Source: Pristiophorus japonicus
Taxonomy: Eukaryota
NCBI RefSeq assembly: GCF_044704955.1
Contig: NC_091994.1
Location: 88,288,001 to 88,352,000, forward strand
Length of the DNA stretch: 64,000 bases
Direction: 5' to 3'
The notes under the pieces were generated by a model, which worked only from the letters and a program-made list of their open reading frames with translations, had not been told where the DNA came from and did not search any database. This document shows positions 57,241 through 58,984 of this stretch, in pieces. A program made the translations under genes and the position numbers. The first letter of the stretch is position 1. Each line of letters opens with the position of its first letter.

Positions 57241-57356
57241 TCACACCTCCCCCCCGCCCCACCCCGACTCCCAGATGTCCGCGGACACCAGTTTGAGAAC
57301 CACTGCTGTAAGTGTTTTTTTTAAGCCAAGTGACCTCGAAGGCTGTACCTTCCTCG

Positions 57357-58946
57357 CAGTGGCGTAACTAGAGGATGTGGGCCCCAATGCAAACATAGAT
57401 TTAAAAAATCACAGGACGACAGGGAAAAGTGCAGCCAGCCAGGGAAGCCCCCGCGCAGCCGCCCCTTGAGTGAGGGGGTCCGGAGGGCCGAAGAGGGAGT
57501 TTGGGGTCTGGGGAGCTGGTGTGAGAGGGTGGATTTACGGGGTGGGAGATTACCGCGGAGTCCGGGAGCGGAGCTGAGCCGGCTGCGGATGGCGGGTCGA
57601 TGGCGCTCCAGGCTCGGCCTCTGTAGGATTTCCAGAGCGAGAATGTGGGCGAGATCTCGGTGCGGGAGGACGAGGTGCTGACCGTGTAAAGCGAGCACGA
57701 CATCGAGGGCTGGCTGGAGGGGGCCAACAGCCGCGGCCAGAGGGGCCTCTTCCTGGCCTCGTACATGCAGCTCCTGCGGGCTGGGAGCGGGAGCGACGCT
57801 GTGCCCGGTGCCGGTGCTGCCGAGCCTCCCGCTATGCCAATGTGCCATCTGGCGGCTACGACAGCCCGGCTCAGCCTCAGCCCCCCAGCGGTTTCCCCCT
57901 GCCGGCCTGCCCCGCCGCCAGCACCTTTTGTCCCCCGCGCCTTTCCCAAACAGGCGGCAGTGGCGGCGGCCTCGGGGGGCTGGTTCTGGCGGGGCTGCAG
58001 CACCAGGCATCGGGCAACGACGACGACTCGATGGTGGCGGACAAGCGCTGTCCGGGGGTGGCGAGAGCGGGTGAGGCGGTGGCAGCGGGTTCTCGGATTT
58101 CGACGGAACGGGCCGCTAGCCGGAATGTCCGGGGGGTCGGTGTCCTCTTCCTCCTTGGCCGCCGCCTCCTCCTCCAAGAGCACGGCCTCAGTCAGCGGGA
58201 ATCTCAACCGCTTCTCCACCTTCATCAAGTCGGGCGGCGAGGCGTTCATCCTGGGCAAGGCGGCCGGCTTCGCCAAGGCCGGCGACAAGATCTGCGTGGC
58301 GGGCGGCCTGCATGGCCCCGAGTGGCAGGAGAACTCTTACCTGTTTGCCTGCTCCATCAACGAGCCCACCAAGCAGACCGAGTTCGAGGGCATCCAGAGC
58401 TACATCTCGTACCACCTGGTGCCCAGCCACAGCCAGTGCCCGGTCAACCGGTGCTACAAGCACTTCGACAGGCTGTACGGCCGGCTGGTGGAGAAGTTCC
58501 CCATCATCTTGGTGCCCCACATCCCCGAGAAGCAAGTCACCGGCCACTTCGAGGAGCACTTCCATCGCCAAGCGGAAGAAAGGGCTGACCCTGTGGATGC
58601 ACCACATGACGAGCCGCCCGGCGCTGGCCTGCTGCGACGCCTTCTAGCACTTCCTCACCAGCAACGACGAGGAGGCTTGGAAGCAGGGCAAGAGGAAAGC
58701 TGAGAAGGACGACATGGTGGGGGGCAAATTCTGCCTGACGCTCAGCACCCTGCAGAGCCCCCTCGACCTGCAGGAGATGGAGAGTAGGGTCGACAGGTTC
58801 AAAACTTTCACCAAGAGGATGGACGAAAGCGTTTTCCAGCTGAGCCACACCGCCAACAAGTTCGCGAGGAAGCAGGTGGTGGGCCCCCCTTCAGGCGAGG
58901 GCCTCAGTGCCACTGCATTGGCTGCACTGGCAGAGTTACGCCACTG
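57357..58946. mobile_element. Pack-hAT: non-autonomous hAT element carrying an SNX18 gene fragment
   Basis: Perfect 13-bp TIR CAGTGGCGTAACT / AGTTACGCCACTG; perfect 8-bp TSD CTTCCTCG at 57349-57356 and 58947-58954. Confidence 0.92.
57600..58884 (+). pseudogene. SNX18: SNX18 pseudogene fragment (SH3, low-complexity region, PX, start of BAR), 3'-truncated
   Basis: MALQARPL*DFQSENVGEISVRE..DIEGWLEGANSRGQRGLF; NLNRFSTFIKSGGEAFILG; YKHFDRLYGRLVEKFP; in-frame stops and frameshifts; ends at RKQVVG. Confidence 0.9.
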
Positions 58947-58984
58947 CTTCCTCGTATTAACCCAGGAAGGTACAGCAACTCTTG

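Follow-up and report, generated by a model that had tools for sequence, protein, structure and literature searches.

An ancient Pack-hAT family carrying part of SNX18 exon 1 in more than 100 copies in the shark Pristiophorus japonicus

The window analyzed here is a 64,000-nucleotide stretch of Pristiophorus japonicus DNA (assembly GCF_044704955.1, contig NC_091994.1, positions 88,288,001 to 88,352,000, forward strand), and within it lies a 1,590-bp element (57357-58946) with a 13-bp terminal inverted repeat (TIR) and an 8-bp target site duplication (TSD) (Table 1). The TIR, CAGTGGCGTAACT, is perfect at 57357-57369 and 58934-58946. When one mismatch was allowed, it matched the 64-kb window twice, once at each element end; shuffled sequences averaged 0.02 matches, and 0 of 100 shuffles reached two. 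The perfect TIR and the perfect TSD (CTTCCTCG) that an initial annotation had claimed are real. The family TIR is 14 bp long, and the 14th pair has been lost from the window copy. Comparison with family members that carry no cargo assigned 44 bp at the left and 66 bp at the right to the transposon, which corrects the annotated estimate of ~55 to 65 bp per end. Cargo-free copies diverge from the window copy after base 44 of the left end, and over 45 bp that end matches the end of a near-full hAT copy (L137) at 97.8% identity. Between the two ends, the transposon interior has given way to ~1.5 kb from SNX18 exon 1, antisense to the transposase. The T/A run at the left junction and its neighbors form a short palindrome in the majority sequence of the family.

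Table 1. Parts of the SNX18-carrying element and its flanking duplications, in window positions
Feature	Position	Strand	Remark
Left TSD copy, CTTCCTCG, 8 bp	57349-57356	+	TSD matching in 53/60 complete family copies
Transposon end (3' relative to transposase), TIR and subterminal, 44 bp	57357-57400	-	
T/A-run junction linker	57400-57408	+	Length varies among copies
GC-rich SNX18 leader	57405-57599	+	Patchy match to parent upstream sequence
Captured SNX18 coding sequence, exon 1 only	57600-58880	+	86% identity to parent
ATG of captured SNX18	57600	+	
SH3	~57612-57773	+	Pfam on parent exon-1 protein, mapped to window
Low-complexity linker	Between SH3 and PX, within 57600-58880	+	
PX	~58422-58659	+	Pfam on parent exon-1 protein, mapped to window
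BAR, first ~70 residues	~58663-58880	+	Pfam on parent exon-1 protein, mapped to window
Transposon end (5' relative to transposase), subterminal and TIR, 66 bp	58881-58946	-	
Right TSD copy, CTTCCTCG, 8 bp	58947-58954	+	

The reading of the cargo as the SNX18 start codon followed by SH3, a low-complexity region, PX, and the start of BAR agrees with the Pfam domains of the parental protein. Four in-frame stops (57624, 57687, 58072, and 58645) and five frameshifts interrupt the window copy, in line with the stops and frameshifts annotated. The annotated loss of the WDD motif is also present, but it is private to the window copy, as the Trp is kept in 43 of the 45 copies that cover the site. We note that the element sits in the loop between the two arms of a 13-bp perfect inverted repeat (57342-57354 and 58964-58976), and a genome-wide search with the flank pattern for a second, empty copy of that hairpin gave 0 matches and was uninformative. 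The end of another DNA transposon, which we take to be a Charlie/MER-type hAT end, lies 50 bp to the left of the element at 57291-57305, and its partner end was not found.

The parent of the cargo is one intact SNX18 gene (G000:C2:114731872-114733205, locus L015) on a different contig from the window element. SNX18 is described as a PX-BAR membrane remodeler, and exon 1 of the parent encodes SH3, PX, and BAR; residues 1 to 260 are 100% identical to a UniRef entry labeled sorting nexin-18a of Pristiophorus japonicus. The cargo corresponds to the first three-quarters of SNX18, lies entirely inside exon 1, and crosses no intron. It breaks off at RKQVV(G), position 2834 of L015 and ~250 bp short of the exon 1 splice donor, and the window copy has no poly(A) at the cargo 3' end; the annotated breakpoint, 3' truncation, and missing poly(A) were therefore correct. 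A processed pseudogene was rejected because the poly(A) tail and the intact 3' end are both absent. No family TIR or other family end was found within 10 kb on either side of the parent. Upstream of the ATG, the leader is ~200 bp in the element versus ~75 bp in the parent, and one leader gap of 24 bp sits between 7-bp direct repeats, an arrangement that would fit a deletion in the parent. The patchy leader match may also reflect a second donor or later insertions. The majority cargo sequence and the parent differ by eight in-frame indels, and the founder was without one of the parent's two WDD units. A second intact gene at G000:C21:63538640-63539836, probably SNX33 (a name we infer), is a paralogue with 54 to 59% identity and lies outside the SNX18-cargo family.

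The ends of the element belong to the hAT superfamily, and the Pack element is a non-autonomous member of that family. Cargo-free members carry an AT-rich transposon interior, some hold transposase pieces, and 12 of 13 complete cargo-free copies have an 8-bp TSD. Dimer_Tnp_hAT (PF05699), the dimerization domain to which the C-terminal transposase part corresponds, scored above the cutoff in L107 and L108, and the ~3.8-kb copy L137 on C9 tiles residues 90 to 850 of an 853-residue hAT transposase (P0151; PF14291 and PF05699). L137 is decayed, with stops, frameshifts, and one TIR missing, and no intact autonomous copy was seen. Cargo-free forms often break 34 to 89 bp from the same end, and internal deletion therefore appears routine in the family. 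Eight cargo-free copies (L129 to L136) lie ~60 kb apart at G000:C4:132.27-132.71 Mb, probably carried there by tandem segmental duplication. Among the closest transposase relatives, DUF4371 was the only domain found; it is associated with the Tip100-like subgroup of hAT elements, where the family may belong. The N-terminal part of the transposase (L031/L061, L137, and L138) shares 64 to 73% identity with a DUF4371 protein from a wasp, Venturia canescens, a resemblance that suggests horizontal transfer between insects and sharks.

If the transposon itself moved between species, the Pack element might likewise have formed in another shark lineage and entered together with its hAT relatives. The wasp-like transposase, whose closest named relative is from a parasitoid, hints that the hAT moved, and the eight in-frame indels between cargo and parent could be read the same way. 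Cargo and parent, however, have in common 20 aligned positions that are absent from 17 other cartilaginous-fish proteins (a set with no other squalomorph), with Q47, R185, C298, and T348 as examples and about half of the 20 in indel regions. Moreover, at four of the differences between cargo and parent, the cargo has the residue common in outgroups, and thus it was the parent that changed after capture at these sites. We consider horizontal entry of the Pack element very unlikely and regard capture of the resident gene as the origin of the cargo.

The window element is one of many. Searching the genome at the DNA level yielded 219 candidates, and the 40 that were scored comprised 39 cargo copies on many contigs and the one parent. 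Searches with the exact end sequences found 46 matches for the left end and 51 for the right, at 85 distinct places, and reversed controls gave 0. Further cargo copies came from a protein search, and when these were added to the DNA and end-pattern searches, SNX18 cargo was found at at least 103 distinct places on 23 contigs of the 5.9-Gb genome. Mark-recapture on the cargo ends (33 left, 38 right, and 8 shared) put the total at ~146 copies if the two ends are detected independently. By type, SNX18 followed the end in 33 left and 38 right matches and transposon interior in 13 left and 13 right matches. Cargo-free elements with the same ends, which the initial annotation had suggested looking for, exist, and cargo copies make up about three-quarters of the family, outnumbering them ~3:1. 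Other cargos, for which a search had also been suggested, were not found: none of the 85 distinct end matches led into a cargo other than SNX18.

Copies with the same TIR-cargo junctions and different TSDs had been named as the mark of mobilization after capture, and such copies abound. Among 99 loci that were fetched, the left junction was present in 83 and the right in 84, and both TIRs were readable in 60. TSDs with at most two mismatches flank 53 of these 60 complete copies, all 53 are different (mismatched pairs of flanks gave 0.8%), and a matching TSD is absent from the other 7. Flanks vary from copy to copy, and for 13 of 43 copies checked, the window copy not among them, we found a paralogous empty site with one copy of the target, in register, in another repeat. 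Target choice shows a weak palindromic preference: of 106 strand-symmetrized sites from the 53 cargo copies, 55 have T at position 3 and A at position 6. Two deletion subfamilies, lacking 378 bp in 17 copies and 394 bp in 9, mostly have TSDs of their own, and both jumped again after arising. Filling of a gap at the window site, independent of transposition, is the usual origin of animal Pack-TIRs as reported (PMC8277862) and was one of two mechanisms that the annotation offered. The shared junctions and the separate TSDs in 53 of 60 copies exclude it, and we give next to no chance to single-copy gap filling or segmental duplication, as one junction pair recurs on 23 contigs amid differing flanks and 53 different TSDs. 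Transposition after capture, the other mechanism offered, is what the copies record. Host sequence that is not itself transposon lies inside the ends of one TIR element, its parent is identified, and its copies occupy distant sites. We conclude that the window element is a multicopy Pack-hAT of the Pack-TIR kind that stands out for its many copies, its large cargo, and the degree to which cargo copies dominate the family, and the annotated capture of an SNX18 fragment by a hAT element stands on ends that belong to a family with hAT transposase and on a parent gene without those ends.

The copies likely trace to one capture followed by one short, ancient burst of transposition. Cargo copies differ from their majority sequence by 5.6 to 9.5% (24 long copies) or by 2.5 to 5.9% outside CpG (47 copies), and cargo-free copies differ from their own majority by 3.7% outside CpG (16 copies). 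The parent and the cargo majority are separated by 0.049 synonymous changes per site, a distance that matches the divergences of the copies, and thus the capture is of about the same age as the burst. Phylogenetic analysis of 57 copies plus the parent gave a star tree in which 4 of 55 inner branches were supported. The deletion groups do not form clades in it (seven and six changes, and shuffles do as well), which would follow from an origin within a brief burst, and the argument for a single origin of each is its shared breakpoints only. Two copies on C13, L005 (35.54 Mb) and L099 (39.02 Mb), share 34 changes along the whole element, versus a mean of 6.4, and have different TSDs, reflecting either a later local jump or conversion of the whole element. 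A divergence of 0.04 over the epaulette shark mutation rate of 7e-10 per generation (as given in PMC10587355) would place the burst at ~6e7 generations, which is probably an overshoot, and we describe the family simply as ancient.

How the founder arose is read from its junctions. Very probably, the window element belongs to a set of more than 100 copies of a non-autonomous hAT element in which the 5' portion of SNX18 exon 1 has replaced the interior. A template switch in the course of repair likely produced the founder in a single event, and transposition in trans likely spread it in one ancient burst. A broken or excised hAT element under repair would have retained 44 and 66 bp copied from its two ends, the gap would have been filled from the SNX18 CpG island when repair synthesis switched templates, and transposase of the family would then have moved the founder in trans. 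The capture step, a template switch onto either DNA or RNA, is deduced from the product. At the right junction, microhomology is 3 to 4 bp at best, a figure that varies with the Val codon assumed for the ancestor: the parent today has GTA GGC and the copies have GTG GGC, such that the GGGC microhomology is not certain. The left junction has the T/A linker rather than microhomology. Capture between two whole elements was set aside as unlikely because both junctions lie inside the transposon and not at its tips.

Two other routes to the founder deserve consideration. Perhaps a replication fork stalled and switched templates between SNX18 and a nearby family element (FoSTeST; Tan et al. 2021), with transposition following, and we take this possibility seriously without favoring it. 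FoSTeST has been proposed for all multicopy Pack-TIRs, and the type case described combines filler on one side with microhomology on the other (PMC8277862), a pattern that the T/A linker and the putative 3- to 4-bp microhomology here may repeat. The cargo is GC-rich, as the model expects. No family remnant lies within 10 kb of the parent, however, and every known family copy on C2 lies more than 50 Mb away, but the missing remnant is a weak counterargument because an excised donor leaves almost nothing. The choice between FoSTeST and gap repair alters only how the founder arose. Alternatively, the filler may have been copied from SNX18 RNA or cDNA, by RNA-templated repair or as a truncated retrocopy, before transposition began. 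A cargo that stops ~250 bp before the splice donor and crosses no intron would suit an RNA template, and a contig of the parent from a run of unknown kind reaches 255 bases or more beyond the ATG on its upstream side, past the 5' breakpoint. SNX18 exon 1 is large, however, and thus exon-only cargo is expected from a DNA template too. Moreover, poly(A) and an inner TSD are absent, the truncation is 3' rather than 5', and the event that brought in the cargo also removed the interior of the transposon. We therefore think an RNA template unlikely.

What the founder encoded can be read from the majority sequence, in which an open frame of 462 codons comprises the SNX18 ATG, SH3, linker, PX, ~70 BAR residues, and then 17 codons supplied by the right transposon end, with the stop codon inside the TIR. 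The founder likely had this open SH3-linker-PX-partial-BAR frame of 462 codons. Since then, the cargo copies have decayed almost neutrally. Pooled over 47 copies, dN/dS is 0.90 after correction for sequence context (1,925 nonsynonymous changes observed versus 2,135 expected), and nonsense changes occurred at about the neutral rate. A raw pN/pS of 0.58 was rejected as an artifact of CpG sites and transitions that also included misaligned flanks. Changes per opportunity at synonymous and nonsynonymous sites were 0.151 and 0.139 for CpG transitions, 0.032 and 0.025 for other transitions, and 0.008 and 0.008 for transversions. The observed/expected CpG ratio is 0.91 to 0.92 in the parent and the majority sequence versus 0.73 in the copies; together with CpG transitions at ~14 to 15% versus ~3% for other transitions, the drop makes methylation after insertion likely.

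The copies are now most likely inert for the most part and without present function. One or more of them might nevertheless act, as a truncated protein that has been domesticated or through a regulatory RNA, with selection having helped to keep the family. The majority frame is open up to the TIR stop, and one copy among 47, L082 (G000:C5:118231404-118232670), is open from the ATG to that stop. Its dN/dS is 0.79 and its divergence is like that of other copies, however, and it has lost 5 residues of SH3 and 126 codons by deletion, with damage in SH3 and PX. Moreover, 1 open copy in 47 is the tail of a spread of 0 to 11 frameshifts, and the pooled decay is near neutral. L082 has five coding indels, all in frame, and its flanks look Harbinger transposase-like by eye. 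A second candidate, L094, is recognized in each of three small runs of unknown kind (X5 to X7), at a depth of 63.5 versus 72.3 for the parent in X7, and it is transcribed if those runs are RNA. L094 has three stops and nine frameshifts. A present function is, in our estimation, highly improbable.

We note that L094, also recorded as L155 (G000:C9:118396395-118397576), is a 378-bp-deletion copy between long, inverted, MITE-like flanks, and the open reading frames in the 10 kb on each side of it are mostly LINE-like by eye. We speculate, and consider it unlikely, that the CpG-island exon drove the ~3:1 out-replication of cargo-free forms, that the burst seeded the germ line with more than 100 BAR-truncated and potentially dominant-negative SNX18 templates, and that L094, perhaps transcribed near the parental level, makes this a pseudogene family that acts on its parent through RNA. 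That truncated SNX18 could have a dominant-negative effect is something we infer.

Capture of gene fragments by TIR elements is common in plants, whereas reports from vertebrates are far fewer. Plant Pack-MULE families hold many cargos, often chimeric. The shark family resembles Pack-MULEs and Pack-TYPE elements as described in being a non-autonomous TIR element with a GC-rich 5' gene fragment in multiple copies, as is often the case there, and differs in its single cargo among 85 distinct end matches. For animals, Tan et al. 2021 (PMC8277862) surveyed 100 genomes and reported four multicopy vertebrate Pack-TIR families, with described cases of 3 copies and 5 transposition events, a median cargo of 224 bp, and 0 Pack-TIRs in elephant shark; SNX18 is absent from the 12 supplements of that paper examined. 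Like Pack-hAT-N8_XT of Xenopus tropicalis, which carries the CAPSL 5' untranslated region, the shark family has a chimeric structure of hAT ends around host sequence, GC-rich cargo, and copies that lie at a distance from the parent, each with a separate TSD (PMC8277862). Unlike the vertebrate cases described there, it has at least 103 copies, ~1.5 kb of cargo with 445 codons, an interior that is nearly all replaced, and a cargo form that outnumbers the cargo-free form.

Two cases outside vertebrates come close in other respects. Ssk-FB4 of Drosophila melanogaster likewise carries protein-coding cargo and has transposed repeatedly, and its junctions pair microhomology on one side (in the shark element, 3 to 4 bp at best) with filler on the other, but it is young, MULE-like (FB4), and in 4 copies, and its near-complete gene is translated and under selection, whereas the shark element is old, 3' truncated, and decaying (PMC8277862). 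Histone H3 in a hAT element of the fungus Pseudocercospora fijiensis is also a housekeeping gene in hundreds of copies that are dead except for the original, but there the carrier is a complete hAT and the copies were killed by RIP (Dhillon et al. 2019, PMC6710886), whereas the shark element is non-autonomous, resides in a vertebrate, and decays through ordinary mutation and the loss of CpG. In the literature searched, a scope apart from the repeat libraries Repbase and Dfam, subscription journals, and bioRxiv supplements, we found no earlier description of an SNX18-carrying shark family.

In a vertebrate, a cut-and-paste transposon has amplified coding sequence en masse in the style of Pack-MULEs, to a copy number 20 to 30 times that of the cases described in the animal-wide survey (PMC8277862). 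As described, that survey matched insertions to transposon consensus sequences, and families with many copies may therefore have been absorbed into a consensus and escaped notice. More such families may exist in large shark genomes. The family is also a warning that intronless pseudogene families can be products of DNA transposons and not retrocopies. With ~100 neutral copies of a coding CpG island, all of the same age, it offers a natural experiment for the mutation spectrum. Ultimately, the copies are a record of ancestral SNX18 and a set of presence/absence markers for squalomorph phylogeny.
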